Counted from the stretch's first letter, positions 9,625 through 62,890 are shown. The stretch is DNA of 64,000 bases from an uncultured Candidatus Poseidoniales archaeon (GCA_902625885.1 CACODE010000002.1:8454-72453), one strand, 5' to 3'. Numbers and translations are program-made. Notes: generated from the sequence alone by a model not told the origin.

Positions 9625-12339
9625 ATGAACACAGAGTTGGTGGTTTGGAGCATGGGGGAAGGAGACGAGGACGAAATCTTCCTGTCTCTGGAGGACGAAG
9701 AGCCCAAGGCGACGCAACCCGCTGCAAAACCCACACCGCAACCGATCGTCATCGCGGAGGCCGCTGAAGAGGTGATGGAGGTTGATGTTGTCGACAGCAC
9801 CGTCCTTTCCGACGCTGCCGGAACCTATGCCGTCAGTTGGCCCATCTTGGGCATGGATTGCCCTGACTGCGCTGCAAAGGCGACTCGCGCCATGAAGCAA
9901 ATGAAGCAGGTCTCAAATTCCACGGTCTCGGTGACGTCCGGAGAGGTCAAACTGGACGTGGATTTGGAGATTGGGCCGTTGTTTGAGGTCTCTTCTGTTC
10001 TGCGGTCCCTCGGCCACGCGCCCGACGTCGAATATCACGAACTTGTGGGCGTGAGTGCTTCATCCATCGCTCAGCGGAACGATGTGCCGGTGGCACGACT
10101 CAATCGCGTGATTCGACGTCAACCCGGCGTGCTTGATGTTGAAATCATGGACGACGACCGAATTCTTTTGCAAATGGTGGTTACCAATGACGAAAACCTC
10201 CTCAAGGCCAGATCGAACGGCTTGCGGAACGTCTTGGGGAGAGAACCGGTCTTCACGAAAGCCAAATCCGATCGGCTTCGTCCCGACCAGTGGCGATTGA
10301 TTGGTGGAGGCATTGCCTTCCCGGTCTTGGTGTTCGTTCTGATGGCCGAAACGATCGGTTTCGGCGGTGCCCTAATACCGCTGCTCGCCGTTCTCGGGGT
10401 CGCCGTTGGTGGTGTTCAGATGTTCAAGGAAGCCTTTGGTTCGCTCAGAACCCTCCAAATGGGGTTCCAAGTGTTGACGAGCCTGGCCGTGATCGGCGCG
10501 CTTATCCTTCAAATGTGGGAAGAAGCGCTTATCGTAACCATCCTCGTTGCGTTCACAATTCACCTCGAGGGGGATGCGCTCCTGAAAGCCAGAGACGCCA
10601 TGCAAGGCGGGCTTGACAGGCTTCCTCGAACGGCGCGAAAACTGCACGACTATCTCGACGTCGATGTTGGAAACATGGCCGCTATCTCGGTAGCGCCGAC
10701 CACGCACGCACCGTTGCTGACCGCCGGGCTGGGCCTCAACATGACGACACAGGAAGGACCGAAGTCGGCAGTTGTGCCGGTTGATCTCATCAAACCGGGA
10801 GATAAAGTGGAGGTGAGAAGCGGTGAATTGATTCCTGTCGACGGACGGATTGTTGAGGGATTCGGTGCCCTCAACAAAGCACCCCTCACGGGTGAATCGG
10901 TGCCCGTGAGCGTGGGCGTGGGTGACACCATCGAAGCAGGACTCGTTCTTGCGCAGGGTCCTGTGGTCTGTGAAGTGCTGGCGGTTGGCGACGATACCAA
11001 ACTCGCTGGCCTCATCGAAGCGGTTCACACCTTCCGAGAAGTGCCCCCTCGGCTCCATAGCGGTATTGAAAAATTCACGGCGGTCTGGGTACCAACGGTG
11101 CTTTTCGGGGCTTTTTTGGTGTATTATTTCGCCTTCCCCGGCGATTGGAAAATCATCCTGCTCCTCTGGGTTGTTTCCTGCCCTTGCGCTCTGCTTTTGG
11201 CCACGCCCGTTCCACACGCTGCGGCACTGTCCAATGCCGCGCAGAGCGGTGCTGTGTTCAGGGGAGGCGATGCCCTTGAGAGAATGGCCCATGTCAATCA
11301 CATTTTGTTGGACAAAACGGGCACGCTAACATCGGGCAAACCCAAAGTTGGCAGCATTGTTCTTGGCAAAGGCCGTCGGATGAAATCGGCGTTGCAGATC
11401 ATCATGGGGCTTGAGGCCCGTTCCAACCACCCTTACGCTACGACGATTGTGGAGCACTGCAAATCGGAAGCCATAGAGGCAGCGAACATCAAGAACCTGC
11501 GGGATATTGAGGCCGGTGTTGCAGGGCAACACGGAAAATCAGAAGTCGCCTTCATACGGCCCGACAAGGCGGAAACGATGGGGTATAAGGTTGAACAGCG
11601 GCTTGTTCAAGCCCACCAAGAAGCCAAAGCATCGGGCAACGGCGCAAGCCTCCTGGTAAAAGACGGTGTTGGCATCGCCGTTGTTTCCTTCATTCATGAC
11701 GACACGAGAGCGGGTTCTGCAGACCTCATTGAGTCGATGAAGAAACGCAACATCAACATTGAAATCCTGTCCGGAGACAATCAACAAGCCGTTTCGGAGT
11801 TCGCTCGCTCCGTCGGCCTTCCCGAAAGTTCGGCCCACGGCGAATTGAGCCCGGAAGAGAAGGTAGCGTGGGTTCGAGCCCGTTCAAGTTCTCACGTTAC
11901 GATGATGGTTGGAGACGGCTTCAACGATGCGGCGGCTCTTGCTGTGGCCGATGTAGGGGTCGCCATCGGCACCGGTGAAGCGGTGAACCTCGAAGCAGCG
12001 GACGTGCTTGTCCCGGGTGACGACCCGAAACTGCTGACCGAAATGATCGACTTGTCAAGGCAAGCACAAAGGACGTTGATGCAGAACCTCTTCTTTTCCG
12101 TGTTCATCACCATCACGCTCGTGTTCGCCGTGGTTCAAGGTTGGTACGACCAGCTCTGGGTGGGGGTTTTGATTCACGAGCTTTCGGTGGTCTTCGTGAT
12201 CATCAACGGTGCTCGGCTCGCTCAGAACGGTCAATCACTGAAGTTGCTTAAGGCAACCATACTCACGATGATTGAAGACATGAAGCTGGCGTTTGCTATG
12301 TTTCGTTCAAGATACATCCCGAAGAAAGAGAACGCTTGA
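9625..12339 (+). CDS. Heavy-metal-translocating P1B-type ATPase
   Basis: N-terminal HMA-like GMDCPDCAAKATRAMK, TM6 SCPCAL, DKTGTLT, MVGDGFNDAAAL. The last TM pair reads HELSVVFVIINGARL rather than the Cu-type MxxSS, so metal specificity is unresolved. Confidence 0.85.
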   Translation: MNTELVVWSMGEGDEDEIFLSLEDEEPKATQPAAKPTPQPIVIAEAAEEVMEVDVVDSTVLSDAAGTYAVSWPILGMDCPDCAAKATRAMKQMKQVSNSTVSVTSGEVKLDVDLEIGPLFEVSSVLRSLGHAPDVEYHELVGVSASSIAQRNDVPVARLNRVIRRQPGVLDVEIMDDDRILLQMVVTNDENLLKARSNGLRNVLGREPVFTKAKSDRLRPDQWRLIGGGIAFPVLVFVLMAETIGFGGALIPLLAVLGVAVGGVQMFKEAFGSLRTLQMGFQVLTSLAVIGALILQMWEEALIVTILVAFTIHLEGDALLKARDAMQGGLDRLPRTARKLHDYLDVDVGNMAAISVAPTTHAPLLTAGLGLNMTTQEGPKSAVVPVDLIKPGDKVEVRSGELIPVDGRIVEGFGALNKAPLTGESVPVSVGVGDTIEAGLVLAQGPVVCEVLAVGDDTKLAGLIEAVHTFREVPPRLHSGIEKFTAVWVPTVLFGAFLVYYFAFPGDWKIILLLWVVSCPCALLLATPVPHAAALSNAAQSGAVFRGGDALERMAHVNHILLDKTGTLTSGKPKVGSIVLGKGRRMKSALQIIMGLEARSNHPYATTIVEHCKSEAIEAANIKNLRDIEAGVAGQHGKSEVAFIRPDKAETMGYKVEQRLVQAHQEAKASGNGASLLVKDGVGIAVVSFIHDDTRAGSADLIESMKKRNINIEILSGDNQQAVSEFARSVGLPESSAHGELSPEEKVAWVRARSSSHVTMMVGDGFNDAAALAVADVGVAIGTGEAVNLEAADVLVPGDDPKLLTEMIDLSRQAQRTLMQNLFFSVFITITLVFAVVQGWYDQLWVGVLIHELSVVFVIINGARLAQNGQSLKLLKATILTMIEDMKLAFAMFRSRYIPKKENA

Positions 12340-25462: not shown

Positions 25463-25539
25463 TGGTGCGCGAGGCAGGACTTGAACCTGCGACCTCCCGG
25501 TTATCAGCCGGGTGCTCTAACCGACTAAGCCACCCGCGC
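25463..25539 (-). tRNA. tRNA-Ile (anticodon GAU), CCA encoded
   Basis: Hand-folded cloverleaf: acceptor GCGCGGG/CTCGCGC, D-arm GCTT..GAGC, anticodon stem CCCGG/CCGGG with loop CTGATAA, T-arm GCAGG-TTCAAGT-CCTGC, discriminator A plus CCA. No intron. Confidence 0.85.
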
Positions 25540-25613
25540 TAGGGTAACTTGCCGACTTGACATCCCGTCATAAGCATGACGGCTCAGATGAGCACCGCAA
25601 AACGGTGGGCGAT

Positions 25614-26198
25614 TCACTCCTCTTCCATGTTGTTGATCGTGATGTACGACGGTAACTGCATGACTTTCTCGAACGTCCGTGAGAGAACAACCTCGTCCAG
25701 TCGCTCTCGAGTGCGAGCAAGCGCCGTAATCGGTATGCGAATCTGCTCTTCAACGCCAAACTCCATCTGCATGCGCATTCGGGTTGTGACGATGACACCC
25801 TTGTAGGTTCGCTTGACCCTAAAGAGCCCCGTAATCACGCCAATTTCTTCGCCCTGGTTGTCCAAGACGGCTCGGTCGAGCATCTCATCCGGTGCGTACA
25901 GCTTTTCATCAATGCGAACGGTGTTGCGCCACCGACGCTGCAGTTCACGCATGGATTTTGACAGTTTGACCGTCCCATCTCCACGAATGCTGTGGACCAA
26001 CTCTTTCGGGAGCGGCGCCAATTCCGCAGGTTTTCGCATGTATTCGTCAGCAACTTCCGGGGCCACTTGTATCCGCATGGATTTCACGCGAGCCTCGTTT
26101 GGGTGGTGTCGTTCACCCACAATCGTTCCTACTTTCTTATCGTTGACATAGACATCGCGTTGGATTAACTCCTGGATGTCGTAATCTGTATTTTTCAT
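25614..26198 (-). CDS. Hypothetical protein with two PRC-barrel-like modules
   Basis: Segments DVYVNDKKVGTIVGE and AVLDNQGEEIGVITGLF resemble PRC-barrel strands. The internal ATG (MKNTDYD) is preferred because the ORF upstream of it (to 26393) runs through AT-rich, promoter-like sequence. Confidence 0.4.
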   Translation of the reverse strand: MKNTDYDIQELIQRDVYVNDKKVGTIVGERHHPNEARVKSMRIQVAPEVADEYMRKPAELAPLPKELVHSIRGDGTVKLSKSMRELQRRWRNTVRIDEKLYAPDEMLDRAVLDNQGEEIGVITGLFRVKRTYKGVIVTTRMRMQMEFGVEEQIRIPITALARTRERLDEVVLSRTFEKVMQLPSYITINNMEEE

Positions 26199-26606
26199 TT
26201 CCCATCTCTCCTTGCCGATTTTTCGGCTTAGCCTACTGTCCACCTCGGCACCTAATATATTCTTCGCCGAATAAAATATCATTTCCAATTGTATTTGACG
26301 CATAATTGTATGCTCAACCAATTGAAATATAGAAATAAATTTACTTTCCAATGTCGCATAACGCGCATCTTTTCCTATTGGAATCCCCACCATAATCCGG
26401 AAAGGTTGAATTTACATTGCAGTTGAAAATAAAGGATTTGAGCGATCTGCGCGTTACCGTTCGGACTCCACCCCTTTTTTTCTCAAATTATGAAATATTC
26501 AATTGGAATTTGCATATAATTGGCGTATTTTGACGAGCGGCGATGCCAAAAGACGCAGACAAGTTTCGTTGGTAGCGTTGATGAAGCAGGTTATGAAGGG
26601 CGTAAC

Positions 26607-27398
26607 ATGGCCCCAGCGTGCGTCTTGACTGCACCCGATCACGCGCTGGCACAGGCCCTGTTGTCTCGTGGAATGTTGGACGGGTTGACGTTTTTCGTGT
26701 CGCAAGACCGACTGGCAGCGGTTCAAGAACGATCCGTAATGAAACAACACGCCGACCCAACCGCTCTTCAGGGCTACAAAACCGACCCCGGTGACGCTTT
26801 GTTTCTGAGTTTCGAGGACATGCCTTCCCAAATCGATGTGCCCGATGGAGCGAGGCACATGGTGGTTGGTTTTGGAGAAGGAGAGGGAAGCCCTGAATTG
26901 GAAAGTATCAACGTTCGCATCCACGACATGCTCCCACCCCTCCCGAATTCACGAGATTCGACCATGTTTCACTCTTGGATGGAAACAAGTCTGCGCGACG
27001 AGGTGCCTGAAATCCATCCCAGCGAACGCTTTTGGTTTGACATCAACGATGCGGTCACTGCCCTTATTGAGCTGATAAAAGGCCAACCTGACACCGCAAC
27101 ATACAACCTCGCCGGCAGAAGAGGATGGACCCTTGAAGAAACATGGACAGAATTCCATCCCCTTGTGCAGAGGACCAAGGCCGGTCAGCACGGTGCGTTT
27201 GCTATTGAACATCTCGTTGCTCGGGGGTTGCCCTCGGTGAGCGTAAAAGAAATCACTGATAGCGGCCATAACCAGCGGCCGTCGCTTTCCAGCATCCATG
27301 CCTATCTCGAAAAAGCGACTGGTGAGGGTTGGCGGCCGAAAACGCCCCTCCGACAGAGCCTGATGCTCGTCATTGCAGATCTGAATCAGGCACTGTAA
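26607..27398 (+). CDS. Degenerate NAD-dependent epimerase/dehydratase (extended SDR)-like protein
   Basis: The C-terminal half resembles epimerases (FWFDINDAVTALIELIKG, YNLAGRRGWTLEE, RPSLSSIHAYLEKATGEGWRPKTPL). The N-terminus CVLTAPDHALAQALLSRG lacks the GxxGxxG dinucleotide loop. The track start TTG 26520 is unlikely. Confidence 0.4.
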   Translation: MAPACVLTAPDHALAQALLSRGMLDGLTFFVSQDRLAAVQERSVMKQHADPTALQGYKTDPGDALFLSFEDMPSQIDVPDGARHMVVGFGEGEGSPELESINVRIHDMLPPLPNSRDSTMFHSWMETSLRDEVPEIHPSERFWFDINDAVTALIELIKGQPDTATYNLAGRRGWTLEETWTEFHPLVQRTKAGQHGAFAIEHLVARGLPSVSVKEITDSGHNQRPSLSSIHAYLEKATGEGWRPKTPLRQSLMLVIADLNQAL

Positions 27399-28402
27399 GG
27401 TTCGCAAAACAAATCGGCACCAAGCAGCGGCAACAGAAGACTGGCATCGCCTTCAACGCAAACATGCGGCGCCTCTGGCCGCATTTTCCCCCACGAAATG
27501 GCCTCCCGCAGACGGGCGCCCGAAAGGCTACCATCGTGTTCTGGCGCCGTTGTGATGTACACGGCGCTGTCAAGGCCGCCTCTGTACTGGTTCCACCATA
27601 TTACGTGATGTTTGGAAATGCCCCCCCCGATCATCAGGGCGTTTGAGGTCGCCACGTCCCAAGTGATGTCGCTCATGATTTGCTCATCTGCGAGCGTGTC
27701 CAGGTGGAAATCACGGTACTTTTGACGGAACATGAAGAGTTGGGCTCCAATGGAACCGTCCGTTATGCCGGGAATGCAAACAGGAATGTTGTGTTTGGCA
27801 GCCCAATAAATCAACGTGTCAGGGGTTCCTATACGCTTGCCGAGTTCCCATACAAGATGAATTGAACCAAAACCTATCCAGGCGTCAGCACCGGTCTTTC
27901 CCGTCTCCTTCAGCCGGTCCTGATAGATGTCCTCAAGCACAGGAAGCACGACAGCTTCCAGAATTTCGCCGTAGGAGGCGTTGGGGACAATGACGTTTCC
28001 AAGACGCATCAAATGATGTTCACCGAGTTCAATGTCGTCCAATTCAAAGGACCCGTGATAGTAGTGTTTGAAGGCCCGGGCGATGTCGTGGTCAAGGGTT
28101 CCGCAGGTCGTCGAAACCACGTTGAACATCTTCCGTTTGATGGCCTCGACAAAGAAGCCACGGGTTCCTGTAGCGCAGAGGCAGGCTGGAAACGAAAGCC
28201 AATTGGTCACCTTGTCAGGGTTGGCGTCTACCGCCTCCGATTGGGCCCTCATGTCAGCGAGAATGGTTCGCGCTTCTGCAAGTTTCGTGGCTGTAAAACC
28301 GCCCGCTTTGGCCATCTGATCGATAAGGGCGCCGGGCGTTGCTGCCTTGGTAAAATCGTAGTCCTCAACGGGAACATCGAACGCTTCGGGATCCACTGCC
28401 AT
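27386..28402 (-). CDS. dys: Deoxyhypusine synthase
   Basis: STTCGTLDHDI, GGGISKHHVIWWN and EAISWGK motifs, 338 aa. Confidence 0.9.
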   Translation of the reverse strand: MAVDPEAFDVPVEDYDFTKAATPGALIDQMAKAGGFTATKLAEARTILADMRAQSEAVDANPDKVTNWLSFPACLCATGTRGFFVEAIKRKMFNVVSTTCGTLDHDIARAFKHYYHGSFELDDIELGEHHLMRLGNVIVPNASYGEILEAVVLPVLEDIYQDRLKETGKTGADAWIGFGSIHLVWELGKRIGTPDTLIYWAAKHNIPVCIPGITDGSIGAQLFMFRQKYRDFHLDTLADEQIMSDITWDVATSNALMIGGGISKHHVIWWNQYRGGLDSAVYITTAPEHDGSLSGARLREAISWGKMRPEAPHVCVEGDASLLLPLLGADLFCEPYSA

Positions 28403-51643: not shown

Positions 51644-53923
51644 ATGGGCCTCTTTGAGGGACACAGGTTGACCATCGTCGGCGTGGTTTCGGCGCTCGTG
51701 CTGGTCTCCAGCCTCGGTTACGAGTTCCTTTCCGACCACGAAGAAGAGGTGAGTTTCAGCATTGATAACGACCTCATGATGAACGACATCAACGAGCTCG
51801 CTTCCTTTGGACCGAGAATTGCAGGTTCAAGTGAGGAAGCCGATGCCACAGCCTACATCAAACAGCGGTTTACGGACATGGGCTTGACCAACGTGAACAT
51901 TGAAACCTTTCCAGTCACCGGAACGTGGTTTGTCGATGCGGAGCCTGATGAGCACCAGATATTGATGCATGCGCAACTCGAGATGGGGGTGCAGAACGGT
52001 CCCGGCCTTCCCGACGGTACGGCGGGCTCCGGGCGCATCGCCGTTGATGAAACGGGGAACATCAACCACATTGAGTCCTTCACCTACCTCGGCTATTCGG
52101 GTGCGAATCACAAGCACGACAACATGTTGACGTTCATCGGTAACGGTTCCGCCGATGCGTTTGCGAACACGAACGGTGGCGACCTCACCGACCTAGCGAT
52201 CATGATCAACTACGACAACATGCGCAACCTGTCTGACATCTACAAGGACGCTATCGACCGGCAGGCTGGCGTGGTGATGATTTACACCGAAGGGGTTGAG
52301 ACCCCACCGTTCCGAAGCGTCACCGTTCAAGAAAACGGCGCCACTGTCCCGTTTCCTGACGCTTACAACGGCGACTATGCCGACCAACTCATTCCGTTCA
52401 TCTACATCTCTGAAAGCGTGGCCATGACCTTCCACGACTTCATTGAACAAGCAGCCGACGACCCCACGCTTTATGCCTCGTTGGACGGTTTTTGGGAAGG
52501 CAACAATGTCGGAACGAGGAACGTCCAAGTCGTCACTGCTGAACTCCCGGGAACGGGTGACGGCACCATTATGCTTGGAGCGCATCACGATTCCGCCTAC
52601 ATCAGCCCCGGGGCGGTTGACAACGCCGTGGGTGTTTCACAACTCCTTGAAATCGCCTCACAACTCAGCACGCTTGAGTTGGAATCCACCGTCAAATTTG
52701 CCACATGGGGTGGTGAGGAACTCGGCATGTTGGGTAGCCAAGCCTACATCAACGCCCACCAACAAGAAATTGACGACTTGGACCTTTACATCAACCTGGA
52801 CTCAACAAACCTTGACCCGCAGAAGGGATTGGGAACCCTCGGTATTGAAACCTCGGACGAGCGGTTGGTCGACTCCATTAGCGGCATCAAAAGCAGGGTT
52901 CTCGACCAGGGGAAATGGAACGATTACGCCGCCACCGTGGCGGTGAGCGATACGGGGAACAGCGACCACCGTTCGTTCAATCAACACGGCGTGACAACCG
53001 TTGGCTTGTTTGGATGGCAGTACGATGAAAACCATCGCCAGACCGACACCCCAAACATCGTCAATCAAGAGGGGCTTGACCTCGCCACGGAAATCGTGCT
53101 GCAGGTGGTCGTCGCCCAAGGCGGGCACCAAACCGGTTCGGAGCCACTGATTCAGATTTCTGGATTGGAAGGCGAATCTGAAAGCTGGGTGTTTCCGTTT
53201 GTCTTGGCGCTGTTGGCCGGCCTTGCCACGGGCATTGGCGGGCTCATCGTGTACATCGTGAAAGAGATCAGCGCCGAAATGATGGCGTTTCTTTTGGCCA
53301 TGGCTGCAGGCGTGATGCTTCTCGTGTCGGTGTTGGACCTTTGGCTCGGTCAAGCCGGGGAAAACGGCTTCCTTCCCATCACGCTTTCTTTCGGCGTAGG
53401 TGTCGCTCTCGTTCTGGGCATCAATCGATACACGGACAAACAAGAAGACGTCTCCAACATGACGCAGGAGAGAAAACTGTACCGGTCGGGTATTCTTACC
53501 GCCATTGCCCTCGCCATCCACAACTTCCCCGAAGGCCTCGCCATGGGTGTGGCGGTCCTGGAGTCGGCACAGTACGGTGTCGTGTTGATGGCCGCCATTG
53601 CGCTGCACAACATTCCGGAGGGCATCGCCGTTGCTGCCCCAATTCAGGCAGGTGGAGGTGGGCGGCTAAAGGCCACGATGATCGCCACCATGACCGGCTT
53701 CACCGAACCGCTTGGGGCGTTGTTTGCGCTGCTTGTTCTCGGCTCCATCCTTACACCGTTCATGGTTGGCTGTTCACTGGCGTTTGTTGGCGGCATCATG
53801 ACGGTCGTGGCCGCCAAAGAACTGATTCCACAAGCTCGCGCCCAAAACCGACCGCGATACATGGTCGTTGGTGCCGTCTTTGGGGCGGCCGTCATGCAGA
53901 TCAGTTTGCTCCTTCTTGCATGA
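51644..53923 (+). CDS. Fusion protein: extracytoplasmic M28-family zinc aminopeptidase plus C-terminal ZIP (ZupT-like) metal transporter
   Basis: N-terminal anchor, then M28 motifs (LGAHHDSAYISPGAVDNAVGVS, WGGEELGMLGSQAY, NLDS, NSDHRSF). From about aa 500 there are 7-8 TM segments with the ZIP signatures AIHNFPEGLAMGV and ALHNIPEGIAVAAP. Confidence 0.8.
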   Translation: MGLFEGHRLTIVGVVSALVLVSSLGYEFLSDHEEEVSFSIDNDLMMNDINELASFGPRIAGSSEEADATAYIKQRFTDMGLTNVNIETFPVTGTWFVDAEPDEHQILMHAQLEMGVQNGPGLPDGTAGSGRIAVDETGNINHIESFTYLGYSGANHKHDNMLTFIGNGSADAFANTNGGDLTDLAIMINYDNMRNLSDIYKDAIDRQAGVVMIYTEGVETPPFRSVTVQENGATVPFPDAYNGDYADQLIPFIYISESVAMTFHDFIEQAADDPTLYASLDGFWEGNNVGTRNVQVVTAELPGTGDGTIMLGAHHDSAYISPGAVDNAVGVSQLLEIASQLSTLELESTVKFATWGGEELGMLGSQAYINAHQQEIDDLDLYINLDSTNLDPQKGLGTLGIETSDERLVDSISGIKSRVLDQGKWNDYAATVAVSDTGNSDHRSFNQHGVTTVGLFGWQYDENHRQTDTPNIVNQEGLDLATEIVLQVVVAQGGHQTGSEPLIQISGLEGESESWVFPFVLALLAGLATGIGGLIVYIVKEISAEMMAFLLAMAAGVMLLVSVLDLWLGQAGENGFLPITLSFGVGVALVLGINRYTDKQEDVSNMTQERKLYRSGILTAIALAIHNFPEGLAMGVAVLESAQYGVVLMAAIALHNIPEGIAVAAPIQAGGGGRLKATMIATMTGFTEPLGALFALLVLGSILTPFMVGCSLAFVGGIMTVVAAKELIPQARAQNRPRYMVVGAVFGAAVMQISLLLLA

Positions 53924-55455: not shown

Positions 55456-55521
55456 TCGATGATTTGGCGTCTACCTCATCGTGGTCGAGCGTCCACTCAC
55501 AGGAAATCTTGGCGAGATAAA

Positions 55522-55866
55522 TCAGGATTGTTCGGCAGGGTTTGATTGGTTGCTGAACAGGATGCTCGCCGTTGCGTTAAACAGGATGTCCTCGGGAATT
55601 TCAAAACCCGCAGCAACGAACGAATGGATGATGTCGGTTTCTCGTTCCTTGTAGGCTTTTGATGAACGAAACGCCTCCAACGTCATCTCGTCCATCCACC
55701 GTGTGAAGACGATGATTCGCTCGCTGTCTTCGGCAAACGTTGACCCGACGCATCCCTGTTCAACGGCAGCCGACAGAAAATCCACCATGGCACCGTGCAT
55801 TTCAGACGTAATTGTTCTGTCGAATTTGTTGGTGATCCACATCCTGATGACGGGCGAGGTATCCAT
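55522..55866 (-). CDS. Hypothetical protein, possibly ABM-like (dimeric alpha/beta barrel)
   Basis: IIVFTRWMDEMTLEAFRSSKAYKE is reminiscent of antibiotic-biosynthesis-monooxygenase domains. Weak call. Confidence 0.3.
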   Translation of the reverse strand: MDTSPVIRMWITNKFDRTITSEMHGAMVDFLSAAVEQGCVGSTFAEDSERIIVFTRWMDEMTLEAFRSSKAYKERETDIIHSFVAAGFEIPEDILFNATASILFSNQSNPAEQS

Positions 55867-56016
55867 GCTCTGCCCACGGCATGAAGCCATTTACGCTTTC
55901 CTGTTGGGGTCTTTGTTAGAAGAAAACAGGCCCATTCAAAATGCACGAGGGGACCTTTCCATGGGTAGCGTCTGAAAAGGCCCACAGCAAGCCCTATGAT
56001 TTGCCAATTCCTGAGC

Positions 56017-56041
56017 AATGGGCATTCGGATAGACCCTCTG
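56017..56041. repeat. Left terminal inverted repeat of the cassette
   Basis: See the cassette entry. Its inner 11 nt (CCCTCTGCTTA, 56035-56045) are also the perfect inverted complement of TAAGCAGAGGG at 56389-56399. Confidence 0.7.
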
Positions 56042-56088
56042 CTTATACGTATAGAATGGTATATCAGTGATTTATTGGTGGAACATAC

Positions 56089-56385
56089 ATGGACATCTTT
56101 TCGATTATTGTATTCGTAGTATGTGTCCTTGTTGTTAGAGCAAAGGTGTTCAATGGTTATTTTGTTGAGAGGCAGTTTAACCCAATTCAGCGTTTTTTGA
56201 TTTCATTTCTTCTTGGGATTATGATTGTGATTGTTGTGAATGTAGTTGGATTACTGATCGCAATTCTTGAGTTGGTGGGTGGAGATGATTACTTCAATAT
56301 TTTTTCAACTACATTGACTTTGACTGGCCTTTCCACCAGAGATATTGCTGCTAAAATTTCTAGTTTTTTGAAAACTAGCGACTGA
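56089..56385 (+). CDS. Small 3-TM membrane protein (cassette gene 1)
   Basis: 98-aa AT-rich ORF flanked by the 11-nt inverted repeat pair 56035-56045 / 56389-56399. Confidence 0.5.
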   Translation: MDIFSIIVFVVCVLVVRAKVFNGYFVERQFNPIQRFLISFLLGIMIVIVVNVVGLLIAILELVGGDDYFNIFSTTLTLTGLSTRDIAAKISSFLKTSD

Positions 56386-56388
56386 AAC

Positions 56389-56408
56389 TAAGCAGAGGGC
56401 CCCCTCTG
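56389..56408. repeat. Hairpin CAGAGGG-cc-CCCTCTG
   Basis: 7-bp stem and 2-nt loop, immediately after the stop of gene 56089..56385. Confidence 0.7.
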
Positions 56409-56449
56409 ATTAAATGGGTAGGCAAAGGGTACGGACTGATGACCCGTCT

Positions 56450-56470
56450 AATCAGAGGGACCCTCTGATT
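56450..56470. repeat. Perfect 21-nt palindrome AATCAGAGGG-A-CCCTCTGATT (likely bidirectional terminator)
   Basis: Lies between convergent genes and overlaps the stop codon of gene 56470..56730 by one nucleotide. Confidence 0.75.
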
Positions 56471-56730
56471 CACTCTGCGTCTTTCGCCTCTGCAATTTCT
56501 TCCTTCTCAACAACGGCGAGATAGTATGATGTTACGATGTTAAGCGCACCAAAAATAATCAAAATAAGACCGAGGAGGCGAGTATTAACAGCAACGAGTT
56601 CTGACAAGTTCGGATCATCAACAATATTCCCGAAAATTGGACTGTTCATCATGAAAGCAATGCCCATCACAATAAGGACAACCTTGCCCGCCAATTCGTT
56701 CACAAACCTCTTCAGGGCACTTTCCGACAT
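56470..56730 (-). CDS. Small 2-TM membrane protein (cassette gene 2)
   Basis: 86 aa. VVLIVMGIAFMMNSPIF and LLGLILIIFGALNIVTSYYLAVV segments, with an acidic C-terminus. Confidence 0.5.
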   Translation of the reverse strand: MSESALKRFVNELAGKVVLIVMGIAFMMNSPIFGNIVDDPNLSELVAVNTRLLGLILIIFGALNIVTSYYLAVVEKEEIAEAKDAE

Positions 56731-56835
56731 GTTTCATCCACAATGCACATGCATCATGAAGATATTGATGATGACCGAAAATTATCGTTGAGGCGAAAAT
56801 GTGGTGGTTTAAGCAGTAAATCAAAGGGTAAATGC

Positions 56836-56907
56836 ACAAACCCACTGCTCCGTTTTGACCCAATCAGAGGGCTTGCAGTGGGCTTTGTCATAGCCTACCC
56901 TCTGATT
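56836..56907. repeat. Nested inverted repeats upstream of the AIPR gene
   Basis: ACAAACCCACTGC (56836-48) pairs with GCAGTGGGCTTTGT (56875-88, one indel). AATCAGAGGG (56862-71) pairs with CCCTCTGATT (56898-907). Confidence 0.7.
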
Positions 56908-57044
56908 CGTACCAGTTTAATCAGTGTGTTGAACAATTATTTCAATGGCGAGGCCGCGCTCGTGACGGGATTCGCCGTCGATGAAGTCGCTGACTTTGGA
57001 CATGTAAATCCCAATTATGACGCTTATTTCAACACTTTGAGCAG

Positions 57045-57054
57045 AAATATAATT
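57045..57054 (+). promoter_or_regulatory. Candidate TATA box for the AIPR gene
   Basis: aaatataatt, 36-45 nt upstream of ATG 57090. Confidence 0.25.
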
Positions 57055-57089
57055 AGAATCATTGAATAACACGGCACCTATGCGATGTC

Positions 57090-59054
57090 ATGGATGTTGC
57101 AGAGTGCCAAGATTACTATCTTGAGTGGAGTGGCCATCATCGAGATGATGTCCCAGCACATATAGCCGCTGATAAAAAACAAAAAAGAGCACTCGAATGT
57201 ATGTTGATGCGAGATGTGATTTATTCTGAATTCGGTATCAGAATAGAATATGCAACTGCGCTGAACGATTTTCTTCGTTATGACGGACCAGGGGATGGAG
57301 GATGCGATGAGCATATCATCGATGATGTGGGCCAAAGAGTAATTTTAATCCAATCAAAAATGAGCGATATAGCTCCAGATGGTTCGTGGACAATGGACTA
57401 CCATATGGATGCGGGGGAGTTGAGCCGTATTGAAACATTTGTCGACAATATACTGGCAGGAACTGCCAAAACAGAGGTTTCGGCAGTACGAACAATCGCC
57501 GCTGGATCAACACGGGAAACTGAGTTGCACGACAGGATCGATCAAATTCATGCAGCCATTAATGGCGGATACGATGTATGTCTAGTTCAGTTGTGCTCTG
57601 GCACTTTTGCCGGACATTGGGAAGCAACCCAAAAACCTGCGATTGTAGCAAAAGGTTGGGATGGTCGCGCTATTGGTTTGGAAGATATCGCTCATTGTGC
57701 AACTGAAGCATTGCAATTAGATGCAACTGGTGGAGCACCAGACCCTATTACACTTAATTTCATCACATCTCATAGTTCAACTGATGACGATGATATTATT
57801 CACGGATTCATTACTGCCTCTTCTCTTGATTCTGCTGTATATCAGGAGGGGTGGAAACTAACGCGCCAAAATCTGCGTCATTTTAAGGGAACAAATGCAA
57901 CAGCAGCCAATTCTGGAATGGTGGAGACACTGAATAACTGTCCTGAAAAATTCCACTTATTTAACAATGGATTGCGGATTACGTGTAGTGCAATGGAAAA
58001 AATCCAGGATACCACAGAAGCAGGTGCTGCTGGGAACATCGATGTTGAAGAGTGGCAAATCGAGAATGCGCAAATCGTAAATGGGGGGCAAACTAGTTTC
58101 TCGATTCGAAGATATAACGGACCATCGAATCTTGTTGATGTCAAAATTGGTTGTGTCCTCATTAAGGAAGAAGATGAAGGGGTGTTGAGGAATATCGCTA
58201 GATATAGCAATACCCAAGAAGCGCTGGATGATTGGGACTTCCACGCAGATAGTGATGAATTACTGCTGTTGAAGGACAACATTGACTTAATTCAATTTGA
58301 TGTCTTGGGGCATCAAAAATCATTCTATTTTGATCAAAAATCAGGTGCCTTTGAATTCCTAAGTCCAGCAGAAAAACAACAATACAGGATCCAAAGAAAT
58401 GCTGGAAAGGCGATCCACTACCGGTTGCACCCTTCTGATTTCGCCAAAGCAAGTTTAGTGATTAATAGTGAGCCATCTGTTGCAAAATCTTCCGCTAAAA
58501 AATTTCACTCTACCAGTGCAACAGGAAGATATAATGATATTTTTGTTAACCAACCTTACTCGCCAAAACCTGTGCTCTACACAATGATTTTGCTTCATCG
58601 TTGTAAAGCACTATTGAAGACTCAAGTTGACGCTGGTGCTCCAGCATTCTACAATCAAGCGGTAGCGCACCTGTCAAGTCTGTTCCTAGACTTCATCCTT
58701 AAAATCTGCAACGATGATCTTGACGATTGGAACGACACAATAGAAGGATACTTCGATGCAATAGTGTGGCATGATGGTGCTCAGGGCAAAAAGATCAACC
58801 AACTCGGTTGTGAAAAATTTGATCTCTGGTTCAACACAATTATAGCAACATGGGGCGCACACATGCATGGTACTCATTCGGTCGCTTTACAAACTCCCAA
58901 CTCTTATTTCAACGGTGAAACCTCATACACCCATTGTAGCACTTGGTTGGATGCGTGGATAGTAGGCAACCAAGCAGCGCCACATCCACTTGCAGCTCAA
59001 CCCCAGTTTGCAGGACAAAACATGCAAGATGCAATTAATGCACAGTTTGTTTGA
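57090..59054 (+). CDS. AIPR-family abortive-infection phage-resistance protein
   Basis: 654 aa. N-terminal nuclease-like motif GDGGCDEHIIDD...VILIQSKM. Central NLRHFKGTNATAANSGMVETLNNCPEKFHLFNNGLRITC and IVNGGQTS match my recollection of the AIPR (PF10592) core (NNGITI, IVNG.QT). Confidence 0.75.
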   Translation: MDVAECQDYYLEWSGHHRDDVPAHIAADKKQKRALECMLMRDVIYSEFGIRIEYATALNDFLRYDGPGDGGCDEHIIDDVGQRVILIQSKMSDIAPDGSWTMDYHMDAGELSRIETFVDNILAGTAKTEVSAVRTIAAGSTRETELHDRIDQIHAAINGGYDVCLVQLCSGTFAGHWEATQKPAIVAKGWDGRAIGLEDIAHCATEALQLDATGGAPDPITLNFITSHSSTDDDDIIHGFITASSLDSAVYQEGWKLTRQNLRHFKGTNATAANSGMVETLNNCPEKFHLFNNGLRITCSAMEKIQDTTEAGAAGNIDVEEWQIENAQIVNGGQTSFSIRRYNGPSNLVDVKIGCVLIKEEDEGVLRNIARYSNTQEALDDWDFHADSDELLLLKDNIDLIQFDVLGHQKSFYFDQKSGAFEFLSPAEKQQYRIQRNAGKAIHYRLHPSDFAKASLVINSEPSVAKSSAKKFHSTSATGRYNDIFVNQPYSPKPVLYTMILLHRCKALLKTQVDAGAPAFYNQAVAHLSSLFLDFILKICNDDLDDWNDTIEGYFDAIVWHDGAQGKKINQLGCEKFDLWFNTIIATWGAHMHGTHSVALQTPNSYFNGETSYTHCSTWLDAWIVGNQAAPHPLAAQPQFAGQNMQDAINAQFV

Positions 59055-59385
59055 TAATAGTGAGATTTGTTCTTAAGAGAATCCTATGTGTTTCTCACAT
59101 TTCAAGTCTCGATATCTAGAAAGTCCTTGCACGCATCAATTGCTTGACGTTCATGTCGGCCATACCTTGGGACTTCGGCTATTTCTAAGATATCAATCGC
59201 GCTTAGATAACCAGAGTTATGAGTGGGTTAAGCAATAGTTTCAATGGATTTTCATTCGCCTCAAAGCGGGTGTGCAGTGACTACCGACTGCCAACCCTGT
59301 TTGGCAAAGGGGGGCCCTTTGCTAAGCTGGTAAAATGGACTGCTGCCTATACACGTTTTTTTTGCCTTTTTCTACTAAATACATC

Positions 59386-59395
59386 TATTTTAAAT
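59386..59395 (+). promoter_or_regulatory. Candidate TATA box for gene 59418..59900
   Basis: tattttaaat, 23-32 nt upstream of ATG 59418, suggesting a leaderless or short-leader transcript. Confidence 0.3.
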
Positions 59396-59417
59396 CAAAA
59401 CTGTGCATAGAAACTTT

Positions 59418-59900
59418 ATGTCAAGCTTAGGGTTCTTGGCAGATATTACCATAATTATTGTTGGTTTTATTTTACTCTACAAATTCCGTAAGCCGATTGC
59501 AAAACTATTTGCAAGAATTCCGCTCTCTGCAGTTTTTCTTGCTCCTCTTGTTTCGCTTCCGTTTATCTTTCTTGAAGAAACTATCAATTGTATGGATTCT
59601 GGCGACGGGCTCGGTTGTCGGATGACAACATGGATCAATGTTGTTCTTCTCATTCAAGTGTTTATTTTATGTCTGATTGTCCATAAGAAAAAAATGACTG
59701 ATATTAAGTGGCCATTATTCTGGTATGCGGTAATTGGAGTTATTTGGGAGATGACTCTTGGTGGATTATCTGTACTTGTTTTAACACTGAATCCCTTCAT
59801 GTTATTCATGGGTCCATATGTGATGGTGAGTTATGCGTTTTTAGCAGTAATTCCACTCACAATTGTGGTTTTACGTAATACTGTATATTCCGAAGATTAG
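59418..59900 (+). CDS. Five-TM membrane protein (cassette gene 4)
   Basis: AT-rich ORF. The track starts at GTG 59403; ATG 59418 (MSSLGFLADITIIIVGFILLY) is preferred. Confidence 0.5.
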   Translation: MSSLGFLADITIIIVGFILLYKFRKPIAKLFARIPLSAVFLAPLVSLPFIFLEETINCMDSGDGLGCRMTTWINVVLLIQVFILCLIVHKKKMTDIKWPLFWYAVIGVIWEMTLGGLSVLVLTLNPFMLFMGPYVMVSYAFLAVIPLTIVVLRNTVYSED

Positions 59901-59920
59901 TGATTAGTTTAGGGTCTTGT

Positions 59921-59945
59921 CAGAGGGTTTATCCGAATACCCATT
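59921..59945. repeat. Right terminal inverted repeat of the cassette
   Basis: cagagggtttatccgaatacccatt is the reverse complement of the left repeat at 23 of 25 positions. Confidence 0.7.
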
Positions 59946-59970
59946 ACTCTGGTATTAGCAAATCAAAGTA

Positions 59971-59989
59971 CTTGCAGTGGGTCTTGTCA
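59971..59989. repeat. 19-nt direct repeat copy, partner at 56872-56890
   Basis: cttgcagtgggtcttgtca versus cttgcagtgggctttgtca (17/19). In addition, gggtcttgtcaga occurs exactly twice, at 59912-59924 and 59979-59991. Confidence 0.65.
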
Positions 59990-60049
59990 GACGCTACTCT
60001 CGATGACGTATAGGAATACGAGGGGAGCCCTTGGAAACGAACCTTCTGC

Positions 60050-62890
60050 TCAATTCGCTTCCCAAAACGGGCTTTCTTTGCTCGTCTCTTCCTGCAGATC
60101 TCGGTCGTAGACCAAGTAGGTGGTGTCGTGCGTTTCAAAACGGTTGATGTCACCGACCTTATGCTGATGTTTGATTTTGCTGCTGGTGATTTTTTTGGTG
60201 AATTCGTTTCGGTGATCGGGAACGAGGCCGTTGAGGCGCTGGCCGTCAAATTCAGCCTCCTTCATCCAAACCTCCTCTTTGCTGTCGGCACGAAGTTCGA
60301 AGTCCACGCGTTGCTGCAAGGTGTAGCCGCCGTCAGAGAAGAGACGGAGGCTCCAAGGACCCTGTTCTTGGCCGGGGAGGGTGGCGTTGCTGACGTCAAT
60401 GTCTCTCAGGTAGCGCCAGCGGTCGCCGTGGTTGCGGTCGTCCGCATTCACCGGATACAGGCCCACCCAGGCATCGTTGTGCCCGGGAGGGTTGGTGATC
60501 TTGAATCGGACGGGTTGACGGTGGTTGAAGGACAGGACCTCAAGGTTCGGATTCGCATTGCTTGAGGCTCCAGTTTTCGCCACGGACGAGTGCCCTTCCT
60601 TGGACTTCATTCCTATCGTGGCGGTAAGAACTATCACTAGTGCGCCAATACTAAACATTACCGCACCCGGAATCAACATGGCGAGTCTGCCTTCGCCCGT
60701 GGATATGGATCCTATGATGAGAAGCGGTAAACCCATGATGACCAAGGTAATGCCAACGCCCGTGGCAGCGACCGCTCTTCTCTTGGAGGATGAGGAAGGC
60801 ATGGATTTGAATCCCATATTCAGGAGGGCGAACAGGCTAACAATGAACGTAAAGCCGCCTATACCCATGAATATGGCGCCGGGAATAAGCATCCCAAGGA
60901 CTTCCTTCTTCTCCTCGTTTTGAATCCACATCATGACCTCGCCACCATCGGAGTTTTGTGCCGTGATGGTGGTCGTGCCGGCCATGCAACCGTGGCATGC
61001 TCGTCCAATCTTGATGAGCTCTCTTCCATCGTGATAGCGCGATTCGGGCCAAGCGCCATCCATAGTGCTGCAGCCACTCCCCTCGTGTGCAGTTTCGAGA
61101 TAGAACACCTGTCGGGTTTCGTCTGGAGCGTTGACGCTCTGATACCCCGTCCACGGGTCAGACATCCAGCTTCCAGAGTGGGTGGCGTTCACGATGATGT
61201 TTTCACAGTGGTCATAGATGCCGTTTGAATTGAAATCGACGGCGCTCCCCTCGACATAAATTCCCCATCCTAAATCGCCTTGCCCGTCGCTGTCTTTGAT
61301 TTCCAAGGTTGCGGAGGTCATGCCGTCGCTGAGGCCCTCACCCAATCCGGCGATAAACAAAGGAACGCTCGGTGCGAGCAGAACCATACCGATGAACAAG
61401 GCGATTAATGCCGACCGCCGACTTGATTCCAGGATGGCTGGGTCAACCGGTTCAGGCGGCTTCACATCGAAGTCTTTCCGTTCGTGGAGGGCGTGCCCTC
61501 CGTTGGAGAACACCCGTATGCTCCAAGGGCCTGCTGCCCGCTTGGGGAACGACACGTTGTTGACATCGATGTTGCGAAGCCATTTCCATCGATGGTTTTC
61601 CGCTCCGTGGTCCTGGTCGCTGGCGTTTGGCGGGTAGATGCCGACCCACGCGTCGTGGTTGGTTGGAGGGTTGTTGATCTTGAAACGAACGGGTTTGTTG
61701 GCCACGGCTTCCAGAATTTCAATCGATTCCCTCGCTGATGATACCGCCTTGCTCGAGTGGATTTTATGCGCCGTGTGGATGGTGACATCTTTTCGTTGGA
61801 CCAGCGTGTATCCGCCGTCTGAAAAGACACGTATGCTCCAATCGCCAGCAGTCAACTCCCCGTTTGATAAGGATACGTTGTTAACGTCAACATCCCTAAT
61901 GTATTTCCACCGAGGAGGCGCCCCATGATCCTGATCGCTTGCACCCGTTGGATAGATGCCCACCCAAGCATCGTTGTGGCTTGGGGGATGGTTCAATTTG
62001 AAGCGGACAGGTTTACCCAGCACGGCTTCCAGCACCTGAATTGGTTCGCCTGAAGCAGACGTGGAGGTACGGCTTTTGTTGAGGTGCCGCTGAATTCGAG
62101 ACGCAGCGTCGGACGCTTGGTCGCCGTGCCTGACCGTTGGCGCGGGATGTGCGCCACCGGGTGCTCCCGGATGACCCCAGTCAACATTTTCCCATACGCC
62201 TTCACGCGGGGGAACACCGATCTTTCCACCGGTATGCGCAGCATAGAGAACCCCTGCTCTTGAGATGATCATCCACTTCCTCCACTCCGGGCGTTGATGG
62301 TAAGGACCGGTGTCTTGGAAAGCGATGAAAATCTCAGGGTTCTGAGTATGCTGGTAATGGCCGGCGATAGTGCTGAAGTGTCTATTCTCATGTTTGCCGG
62401 GCATGAACTCATAGTTCCCGTTCACTTCCGGACTTCCGGCTTGAGCGACGATTACATACGAGGGCATAGATGCTGTAGTTGTTGCAGGGTGTTGTTGACC
62501 TGTAGCGCCCTGCTGCACGAACTGGATGTCTTCCCAGCCCCCAGGGGGCGCATGGTCCCGGTTCCACTGTGCCGTGCCATCAGACTGCGCGCTCAGGTAC
62601 TTCCCGTGGCAGGACTTCAAACAGACCGTGTTGTTGCCACGGTCTTCAACGCTGAACTCCTCCCAGCCATTTGGCGGTGCCGATCGGCGATTGATTTGCA
62701 CGCTGCCGTCGGGCTGTGCTGAAACATACATGCCGTGGGCGCCCCTGAGGGTGATTTTACCGCCTGGCCGCTCCTCAACGTGGAAGTACTCCCACGCACT
62801 TGCAACAGGTCTGTTCCATTCAGCGCGCCCGTCAGGCTGTGCGCTCAGAAACTTCCCGTGTACGCTGCGAAGCGACACGATACCCGACAT
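60050..62890 (-). CDS. Large 4-TM protein: N-terminal fascin-like beta-trefoil, unassigned domain, three ~88-aa repeats, Cys-rich ectodomain
   Basis: 946 aa. Three ~40-aa trefoil repeats (LRSVHGKFLSAQPDGRAEWNR / LRGAHGMYVSAQPDGSVQINR / LKSCHGKYLSAQSDGTAQWNR). Repeats with PVRFK(L/I)(N/T)(H/N)PP..(N/H)DAWVG(I/L)YP...D..HG..(R/H)(W/R)(K/R/W)...(D/N)(V/I)DV.N..(L/F/T)...(D/G/P)(P)WS(I/L)R(V/L)FS(D/N)GG at aa 283-371, 389-476 and 782-865. TMs at about aa 493-516, 665-690, 708-729 and 736-760. Confidence 0.7.
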   Translation of the reverse strand: MSGIVSLRSVHGKFLSAQPDGRAEWNRPVASAWEYFHVEERPGGKITLRGAHGMYVSAQPDGSVQINRRSAPPNGWEEFSVEDRGNNTVCLKSCHGKYLSAQSDGTAQWNRDHAPPGGWEDIQFVQQGATGQQHPATTTASMPSYVIVAQAGSPEVNGNYEFMPGKHENRHFSTIAGHYQHTQNPEIFIAFQDTGPYHQRPEWRKWMIISRAGVLYAAHTGGKIGVPPREGVWENVDWGHPGAPGGAHPAPTVRHGDQASDAASRIQRHLNKSRTSTSASGEPIQVLEAVLGKPVRFKLNHPPSHNDAWVGIYPTGASDQDHGAPPRWKYIRDVDVNNVSLSNGELTAGDWSIRVFSDGGYTLVQRKDVTIHTAHKIHSSKAVSSARESIEILEAVANKPVRFKINNPPTNHDAWVGIYPPNASDQDHGAENHRWKWLRNIDVNNVSFPKRAAGPWSIRVFSNGGHALHERKDFDVKPPEPVDPAILESSRRSALIALFIGMVLLAPSVPLFIAGLGEGLSDGMTSATLEIKDSDGQGDLGWGIYVEGSAVDFNSNGIYDHCENIIVNATHSGSWMSDPWTGYQSVNAPDETRQVFYLETAHEGSGCSTMDGAWPESRYHDGRELIKIGRACHGCMAGTTTITAQNSDGGEVMMWIQNEEKKEVLGMLIPGAIFMGIGGFTFIVSLFALLNMGFKSMPSSSSKRRAVAATGVGITLVIMGLPLLIIGSISTGEGRLAMLIPGAVMFSIGALVIVLTATIGMKSKEGHSSVAKTGASSNANPNLEVLSFNHRQPVRFKITNPPGHNDAWVGLYPVNADDRNHGDRWRYLRDIDVSNATLPGQEQGPWSLRLFSDGGYTLQQRVDFELRADSKEEVWMKEAEFDGQRLNGLVPDHRNEFTKKITSSKIKHQHKVGDINRFETHDTTYLVYDRDLQEETSKESPFWEAN

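Follow-up and report, generated by a model that had tools for sequence, protein, structure and literature searches.

A 64,000-nucleotide (nt) window from an uncultured Candidatus Poseidoniales archaeon (GCA_902625885.1, CACODE010000002.1:8454-72453) contains an AT-rich segment, 55968-59996, which we interpret, with a probability of roughly 0.7, as the set of gene cassettes now occupying a hypervariable hotspot, which lies between the genes of a 946-amino-acid (aa) protein and an ABM-like protein in a high-GC Poseidoniales genome. The preliminary description of this DNA had seen in it one 3.9-kb cassette with private terminal inverted repeats (TIRs). Read base by base, the 4,029-nt insert instead consists of seven units, three without an open reading frame (ORF) and four with a single gene, and each has the dinucleotide TA on both sides, within a palindromic core centred on GG-TA-CC. 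The supposed TIRs are two of three copies of the ORF-less unit, which is found also in other genera. The view of a single cassette is further contradicted by strains that differ by individual units and by the occurrence of one unit, carrying a gene of the AIPR family, alone in another array. The units and their surroundings are as follows, u66 being the ORF-less unit and hp1 and hp2 hairpin junctions.

55522-55890 (- strand): conserved flanking gene, 122-aa ABM-like protein; weak Pfam ABM match.
55960-55967 (no strand): ABM-side half-site, CATGGG and TA (55966-55967); left insert boundary, where sister-strain homology ends.
55968-56030 (+ strand): u66 copy L, TA-flanked, core of the left repeat of the preliminary description; nhmmer E = 1e-24.
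56031-56032: TA after copy L.
56033-56429 (+ strand): 98-aa unit; head GACCCTCTGCTT, ORF 56089-56385, tail a short palindrome and ...GCAAAGGG; ORFan.
56388-56470 (no strand): hp1, where the 98-aa and 86-aa units meet tail to tail; fold z = -5.2.
56430-56431: TA between the 98-aa and 86-aa units.
56432-56828 (- strand): 86-aa unit, reversed; ORF 56470-56730 (-), head CCCTTTGATTT at the right end; ORFan.
56829-56830: TA between the 86-aa unit and copy M.
56831-56895 (- strand): u66 copy M, reversed, TA-flanked; direct repeat; nhmmer E = 9e-25; fold z = -4.2.
56896-56897: TA between copy M and the AIPR unit.
56898-59281 (+ strand): AIPR unit; head CCCTCTGATTCG, ORF 57090-59054 (654 aa), tail ...GCAGTGAC; Pfam AIPR 1.5e-31.
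59282-59283: TA between the AIPR and 165-aa units.
59284-59929 (+ strand): 165-aa unit; ORF 59403-59900 (+), tail (hp2) on the left, head ...TCAGAGGGTT on the right; ORFan.
59930-59931: TA between the 165-aa unit and copy R.
59932-59994 (- strand): u66 copy R, reversed, TA-flanked, core of the right repeat of the preliminary description; nhmmer E = 3e-23.
59995-59996: TA, right insert boundary; the flank then reads CTCTCG...
59997-60049 (no strand): flank on the side of the 946-aa gene, with a degenerate palindrome at 60020-60035; present in the empty-site allele too.
60050-62890 (- strand): conserved flanking gene; encodes an internally repetitive membrane or surface protein of 946 aa.

The three ORF-less copies are 63-65 nt long, and the gene-bearing units combine a conserved head (TA-CCCTYTGATTC or TA-GACCCTCTGCTT) with one of a few types of tail. 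The array ends in an inverted repeat because the ORF-less unit occupies both of its ends in opposite orientations, and the long hairpins at copy M and hp1 arise because the heads or tails of neighbouring units face each other. Copy M, the third repeat copy inside the segment (56821-56905) and oriented like the right arm, is bordered on each side by the head of a unit, an arrangement that gives a hairpin of ~90 nt. At hp1 two CAGAGGG.CCCTCTG palindromes, with strict core palindromes at 56393-56408 and 56453-56467, form a long hairpin, and hp2 (around 59262-59330) is of the same CAGAGGG...CCCTCTG type, with the palindrome GCAAAGGGGGGCCCTTTGC at 59305-59321. A related palindromic junction is found between every pair of neighbouring genes.

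The 25-mers from which the inverted repeat had been recognised (56017-56041 and, on the reverse strand, 59921-59945) were correctly placed and differ at 2 positions; no further copy with at most 3 mismatches occurs in the window, nor did any occur in 100 shuffles. The repeat extends outward from them to arms at 55965-56041 and 59921-59997 (77 nt, 84% complementary), so that the 25-mers are its inner ends. The statement that no target-site duplication is present therefore holds for the ends then chosen but not for the true outer ends, where TA stands at 55966-55967 and 59995-59996. In 352 kb of related sequence every copy of the 25-mers lies at a cassette junction, and they are not genome-wide repetitive extragenic palindromic (REP) sequences.

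The compositional contrast described earlier is real: G+C per kb is 0.42, 0.43, 0.43 and 0.39 over 56-60 kb against 0.52-0.62 almost everywhere else (~56% for the window outside the segment), and the switch occurs within ~100 nt of the repeat. G+C at third codon positions (GC3) is 0.34-0.48 in the four cargo genes and averages 0.65 (sd 0.05, minimum 0.52) in 48 other genes of the window. The segment is compositionally foreign, and it is missing from a sister strain (L041) in which the flanking genes are adjacent; both points favour the preliminary description. The host is an archaeon, as had been stated, and belongs to the Poseidoniales, or Marine Group II (MGII). The rest of the window holds housekeeping genes. 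No integrase or transposase was found in the segment by profile search and reading of translations, in agreement with the preliminary description, and no recombinase was recognised in the 64-kb window by Pfam searches of the flanking genes and ten unidentified ORFs and inspection of the other translations by eye. Since the segment encodes no recombinase, any mobility must be supplied in trans, as had been suggested.

At least ten alleles occur at the same nucleotide on contigs of sister strains whose flanks, like their ABM proteins, are 91-97% identical to those of the window, and in at least nine of them the breakpoint falls on the same TA and not within the flanking genes. More widely, homologs of the ABM protein (62-97% identity) stand beside variable arrays in four lineages, and the ABM gene anchors the hotspot in every lineage examined. 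Homology to L023, L024, L039 and L041-L045 stops at the ABM-side half-site (55960-55967), and the CATGGGTA boundary, formed as at this half-site by CATGGG followed by TA, recurs in another genus. The allele L041 is an empty site: the 946-aa gene adjoins the ABM gene, ~4.07 kb of the window is missing and a single TA is left. At its 3' end the 946-aa gene of this contig has 95.8% identity to 60018-60348; ~60 nt further on come ...CACAACTC-TA-CCGTTGTG and then an ABM flank 94.7% identical to 55514-55946. The empty site was found among cluster members of near-identical ABM proteins only; in the species representatives (L001-L004) synteny was too rearranged for one to be seen. In one of these, L003, a homolog of the 946-aa gene adjoins the ABM gene in the opposite gene order.

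Other alleles differ at the level of single units. L023 (flank 96.8% identical) is without 55975-59281 only (~3.3 kb), and the tail of the 165-aa unit (hp2) is there fused to the ABM flank in the sequence ...CCATGGG-TA-CCGACTG...; the crossover partners share ~10 nt of imperfect similarity, which is too short for an assembly chimera or ordinary homologous recombination. In L042 the flanking genes are those of the window, but the cassettes that they enclose are two others, of 275 aa and 164 aa. The 164-aa cassette is missing from L045, exact to the TA and with a single TA left, and stands in L043 with the same head behind a different neighbour. Alleles with a 96-aa unit (L024, L057-L065) and with other units (L039, L052) were also found, and L054 has a 54-aa unit whose end forms with the flank a perfect 18-bp palindrome, CACAACGG-TA-CCGTTGTG, the 946-aa gene lying within about 400 nt of the ABM gene. 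Two species have long contigs (18-72 kb) whose ends lie 17-700 nt from the hotspot. The distal array unit of one sister strain (L061, 82-774) is a T5orf172/MUG113 gene, for a GIY-YIG-like nuclease.

The AIPR unit is used again elsewhere. It is 93% nucleotide-identical to L010-L012 over 56901-56935 and 57062-59154, the homology beginning at the unit head, and is accompanied in these contigs by none of the window's other units. Its setting there is a 12-kb low-GC defence island, and since nothing in the window corresponds to the GC-rich L010 flank, the L010 array lies at a different locus. The 126 nt at 56936-57061, part of the AIPR gene's 5' leader, are missing in L010-L012, and a 108-aa ORF spanning this stretch (56743-57069) is probably not a gene. 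Upstream of the AIPR unit, L010 (1-8300) encodes a PbeA-like helicase (PADLOC 2e-47), a HEC-07/NsnC-like protein (8e-20) and several ORFans. L010 also harbours a second, unrelated junction repeat, TTGAAATAGGTCAAGGACACACCGTG, in direct copies at 8376-8401, 8703-8728, 11785-11810 and 12300-12325, each of which follows a single ORF; L011 has a copy at 2966-2991 and lacks a cassette with a 140-aa ORF, exactly one copy of the repeat remaining at that junction. These repeats mark a separate cassette system, in apparently another AT-rich island of a GC-rich genome.

Alleles and reuse bear directly on the idea of a single composite, non-autonomous transposon that spans all 4.03 kb and has inverted units resembling miniature inverted-repeat transposable elements (MITEs) as its ends (TA-GCGTCTGA...TCAGACGC-TA). 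Such an element would have been inserted in one piece, with duplication of TA, by an IS630/Tc1-mariner-type transposase acting in trans, and would resemble the MITE-flanked 'integron mobilisation units'. The 77-nt, 84% inverted repeat at the ends, the TA on both sides of the true ends with a single TA in the empty allele, and the lack of a transposase inside the segment are all as this idea predicts. We consider it unlikely, however, in view of the third copy of the unit inside the segment, the allele L023, which misses just part of the segment and breaks at an internal TA, the single-cassette variation among other strains and the presence of the AIPR unit elsewhere without the other units. 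Long TIRs are missing from the gene-bearing units. Furthermore, each arm has 86% identity to the u66 copy that lies between two unrelated small genes on the TARA contig L009, itself unrelated; at 84%, the arms resemble each other no more closely than this, and their similarity is therefore at family level.

TA is present at all 28 junctions compared, from 17 sequences. Symmetrised, the half-site reads CC(S)T(Y)KKA, which makes the core a palindrome centred on GG-TA-CC, with a spacer of 1-3 bp, typically TA, between the inverted half-sites. The ends of the gene-bearing units resemble each other, imperfectly and in inverted orientation, over just ~8 nt. Copies of u66 lie beside a homologous ABM-like gene in two other genera (L001; L025/L027), and the elements are ~85% identical between genera, the neighbouring ABM proteins ~70%. 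Across the 352 kb of the window and related loci, elements and heads were found solely at variable-gene junctions and in no conserved core region; they are absent from ~300 kb of core sequence, low-GC genomes included, and the strict core palindromes of the window lie inside the island only. In a metagenome scan with a degenerate 24-nt element pattern, just one of 5 loci (L009) was a true member, the family being too divergent for exact patterns. Three element patterns and the AIPR protein had no match in viral contigs, which gave no sign of a magrovirus link.

We propose that units are gained, lost and re-assorted singly and in either orientation by precise recombination at the TA. The half-sites around this TA are short and inverted (consensus ...GG-TA-CC(S)T(Y)KKA), so that each junction reads as a palindrome or hairpin. 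No recombinase gene is present in the window's array or in the gene tables of related arrays; the recombination would be site-specific and would depend on an enzyme that acts in trans from another locus. The locus is best read as a platform for cassettes, similar to integrons or dif modules, on which such an enzyme would act. A symmetric 2-bp core, inverted half-sites of 8-10 nt and the lack of an orientation bias fit a serine-recombinase-type site best. Judging from general knowledge, we would, within this explanation, put a serine recombinase first, at somewhat under even odds; a TA-targeting transposase of the IS630/Tc1-mariner type comes next and is distinctly less likely, and transposition to a fixed target by an HUH enzyme (IS200/IS605) is a long shot. 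TA flanks are equally a hallmark of IS630/Tc1-mariner transposition. The low G+C of the cassettes suggests a shared gene pool that circulates among Poseidoniales, low-GC lineages included. It is a tentative further step, which we hold to be somewhat less probable than its negation, to see here a cassette-capture system of the Poseidoniales' own, analogous to integrons and unrelated to them in sequence. A palindromic TA attachment site by the ABM gene would then accept, through an enzyme in trans and in either orientation, cassettes with matching half-sites, and the 63-65-nt ORF-less unit would seed or accompany the arrays. No account of such arrays in Poseidoniales was found in the literature searched, and the recombination system is possibly new.

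Several observations weigh against recombination of cassettes at the TA. No acting enzyme was identified, and no circular or excised intermediate was seen. The half-sites are short and degenerate, and in L058 (about 690-710) and L063 the otherwise invariant TA is replaced by TG (...ACAACCT-TG-CAGTTGTG), perhaps a mutated and inactive site. The homology between the AIPR units of the window and L010 ends 127 nt short of the unit end, and units are themselves mosaic. L024 carries an esterase and a photolyase gene beyond its 96-aa unit, in place of the 946-aa gene. The contigs compared are metagenomic and come from different samples, not from isogenic strains, and each gain or loss could be an allele swapped by homologous recombination in the flanks. 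Finally, covariation in the hairpins did not exceed that of shuffles, either in RNAalifold or in an explicit long-hairpin model, and does not support a selected hairpin. The hairpin register is kept (63% paired vs 27-43% in slid controls), and a conserved register without covariation is more easily reconciled with DNA sites than with an RNA fold under selection. A known structured RNA family was rejected on the lack of covariation and of any match to the Rfam covariance models at E <= 1 over 55500-60500.

The lack of a recombinase and of covariation counts in favour of another account, in which the palindromes are passive intergenic hairpins, similar to REPs, bacterial interspersed mosaic elements (BIMEs) or terminators, that were carried along with low-GC Poseidoniales genes. 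Variation would then arise by homologous recombination in the flanking genes, as for the 'minimal mobile elements' of Neisseria; the flanks are conserved enough for it, and most ORFs are followed by a hairpin. We nevertheless find this account improbable, since at least nine alleles break at one and the same TA and not in the flanking genes, and since units are re-assorted within arrays. Nor would passive hairpins be expected to be missing from ~300 kb of core sequence that includes low-GC genomes, or to be ~85% identical across genera in which the ABM proteins are ~70% identical.

The array follows the logic of integrons and of the dif modules of Acinetobacter, and its island is built up in the manner of tycheposons, but it lacks the defining features of all three. 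Integrons, including clusters of attC sites lacking integron integrases (CALINs), have been described from archaea (Ghaly et al. 2022, PMC9668308), in a paper that does not mention Poseidoniales. Integron arrays and CALINs resemble the present array in their mostly single-gene, compositionally foreign cassettes, imperfect palindromic sites with inverted core ends, fixed boundary position in the core, ORF-less cassettes, frequently missing recombinase gene and cargo rich in ORFans and defence genes. Single-gene cassettes with imperfect palindromes between them, and gain or loss among strains exact to the site, are indeed what is seen here. Canonical attC cores (R'' RYYYAAC, R' GTTRRRY) were rejected: a pattern scan of both strands of 55801-60200 gave matches only in ORFs (56175-56251 and 58829-58952) and 0 at junctions. 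An IntI with attI was rejected as well, no PF00589-type or other recombinase appearing in Pfam searches of the flanking genes and ten ORFs, in the remaining translations as read by eye or in the gene tables of related arrays. Integron crossover takes place at G/TT, whereas the apparent crossover here is at a symmetric TA, with units in both orientations, and each Poseidoniales unit, as read from the sequence, appears to have an AT-rich TATA-like promoter of its own.

The dif (pdif) modules of Acinetobacter (for example PMC6449649 and PMC13141974) likewise comprise one or few genes without a recombinase of their own, have short, partly palindromic sites and occur in either orientation and in shuffled contexts. 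Their movement is attributed to a recombinase of the host that acts in trans, much as is proposed for the array. Their sites are 28 bp long, with two 11-bp arms and a 6-bp spacer on which the tyrosine recombinases XerC and XerD act, and their setting is plasmids; here the spacer is a 2-bp TA, the half-sites are unrelated and the setting is an archaeal chromosome. Xer/dif modules were thus rejected, as they require a central region of 6-8 bp and the spacer here is 1-3 bp, typically TA.

Tycheposons, the tRNA-seeded flexible islands of marine bacteria (bioRxiv 10.1101/2020.12.28.424599), share with the array a fixed hotspot in a streamlined marine microbe, tandem accretion of cargo, separation by short repeats, strain-variable content and a tendency of assemblies to break at the island, and a tRNA-Leu stands at the equivalent position in one related species. 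They differ in their tyrosine recombinases and direct partial-tRNA repeats, the array having no integrase, no tRNA fragment and palindromic TA junctions. In that related species, tRNA-Leu(TAG) directly follows the ABM gene (L031, 683-769). In L035 (about 590-620) 24 nt of the tRNA-Leu 3' end are kept, with one mismatch, and are followed by a collagen-like gene; in L036 (about 545-575) 11 nt are kept, followed by TA-CCCTCTGCTT and the gene of a 290-aa membrane protein, and the junction after the tRNA 3' fragment reads GCAGGGG-TA-CCCTCTGCTT. A tRNA-targeting element was rejected for the window, whose only tRNA is tRNA-Ile at 25463-25539, a partial tRNA being found in a related species alone (L035); tRNA-derived elements were rejected on a weak alignment and the lack of ARAGORN or Rfam support, the resemblance being confined to the acceptor stem. 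It is very improbable that integrase-mediated, tycheposon-like insertions followed one another at a tRNA site and then decayed into the present array, its palindromes being degenerate partial-tRNA att repeats: the ABM-adjacent tRNA-Leu(TAG) of one related species, its 11- or 24-nt 3' fragments followed by foreign genes, the likeness of the acceptor stem GCAGGGG/CCCCTGC to the core and the similar accretion of tycheposon islands speak for it, but the window's array holds no tRNA or fragment (ARAGORN; Rfam E <= 1), the element-to-tRNA alignment is weak, the junctions are palindromic with units in both orientations where att remnants are direct repeats, and integrase remnants were found in no array.

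IS630/Tc1-mariner elements and MITEs have terminal inverted repeats of about 20-30 bp, are flanked by a TA duplication and depend on a cognate DDE transposase. The array resembles them in its TA flanks, its short inverted ends, the single TA at empty sites and the hairpin-like ORF-less unit of ~65 nt, which is an imperfect hairpin, and it too would be mobilised in trans. TA at 28/28 junctions and the single TA in L041 and in L045 compared with L042 conform to IS630-type insertion and fit a 2-bp recombinase crossover equally well. IS630/Tc1-mariner insertions disperse, whereas the units here are stacked at one site, and the gene-bearing ones share ~8 nt only at their ends; no IS630-family transposase was seen in about 0.4 Mb. 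IS200/IS605 derivatives (PATEs) and REP/RAYT elements have subterminal hairpins, insert 3' of a fixed tetra- or pentanucleotide without duplicating it and use a Y1 HUH transposase. Here every left flank ends in ...GGTA or a similar ...TA and hairpins are present; the units lie in both orientations, and no TnpA (Y1 HUH) was found.

The cargo previously listed, a 98-aa ORF, an 86-aa ORF, an AIPR gene and an ORF of ~160 aa (165 aa), was confirmed in full. The hydrophobic segments of the three small proteins fit roughly to 3, 2 and 5 transmembrane helices, respectively, and none of these proteins had a family match, or a homolog in a concatenated search of 5.8 billion proteins. The AIPR protein matches Pfam PF10592 (1.5e-31; 110.7 bits vs a gathering cut-off of 25) over residues 260-538, its N-terminal ~250 residues having no assignment, and has 9 homologs at E <= 1e-10 among the 5.8 billion proteins; exact look-ups of this protein and of the window's ABM protein gave no match; in a sequence search of the PDB it gave only spurious matches, to designed repeat proteins. 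With the AIPR/AbiU/MzaE abortive-infection proteins it shares the Pfam AIPR domain and PADLOC matches to AbiU (2e-15) and MzaE. It differs from MzaE proper in that it scores 44 bits on the NCBIfam MzaE equivalog, far under the 1050-bit cut-off, and is accompanied by no Mza partner genes. Judged by family membership, the AIPR unit would confer antiviral defence of the abortive-infection type. The label of a defence cassette given to the segment suits the AIPR gene but not the whole, for none of the other three genes is related to defence, their small products being without homologs.

Some further features of the window may be recorded. The flanking 946-aa protein has three internal repeats of ~300 aa (DNA 60303-60516, 61473-61695 and 61788-62000) and an N-terminal fascin/beta-trefoil-like domain. 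An M28 peptidase domain and a ZIP metal-transporter domain are joined in a single 759-aa ORF at 51644-53923, which is kept in all sister strains. The window has just one other low-GC kilobase (0.479, 26001-27000). It comes after the gene of tRNA-Ile(GAT), within 25463-27400, and holds ORFs at 25614-26393 and 26520-27398 that have no clear Pfam match; this stretch could be another small variable spot.

MGII archaea are uncultured and very abundant, and the routes by which they exchange genes are almost wholly undescribed. The locus described here offers a sequence-defined handle on this exchange, with a fixed hotspot, at least ten natural alleles and a GG-TA-CC core, and its units recur across genera and in genomes of different G+C. 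The core and the 63-65-nt unit are usable as search models for the flexible gene pool of Poseidoniales, antiviral genes such as that of the AIPR cassette included. If an enzyme acts on the core, it would represent a new archaeal system of cassette recombination, invisible to integron finders based on attC and IntI, and would explain why assemblies of metagenome-assembled genomes (MAGs) break at the hotspot. Should the Poseidoniales prove to have a capture system of their own, the arrays would amount to a reservoir of defence and surface genes, shared at the population level, in archaea that are among the ocean's most abundant.

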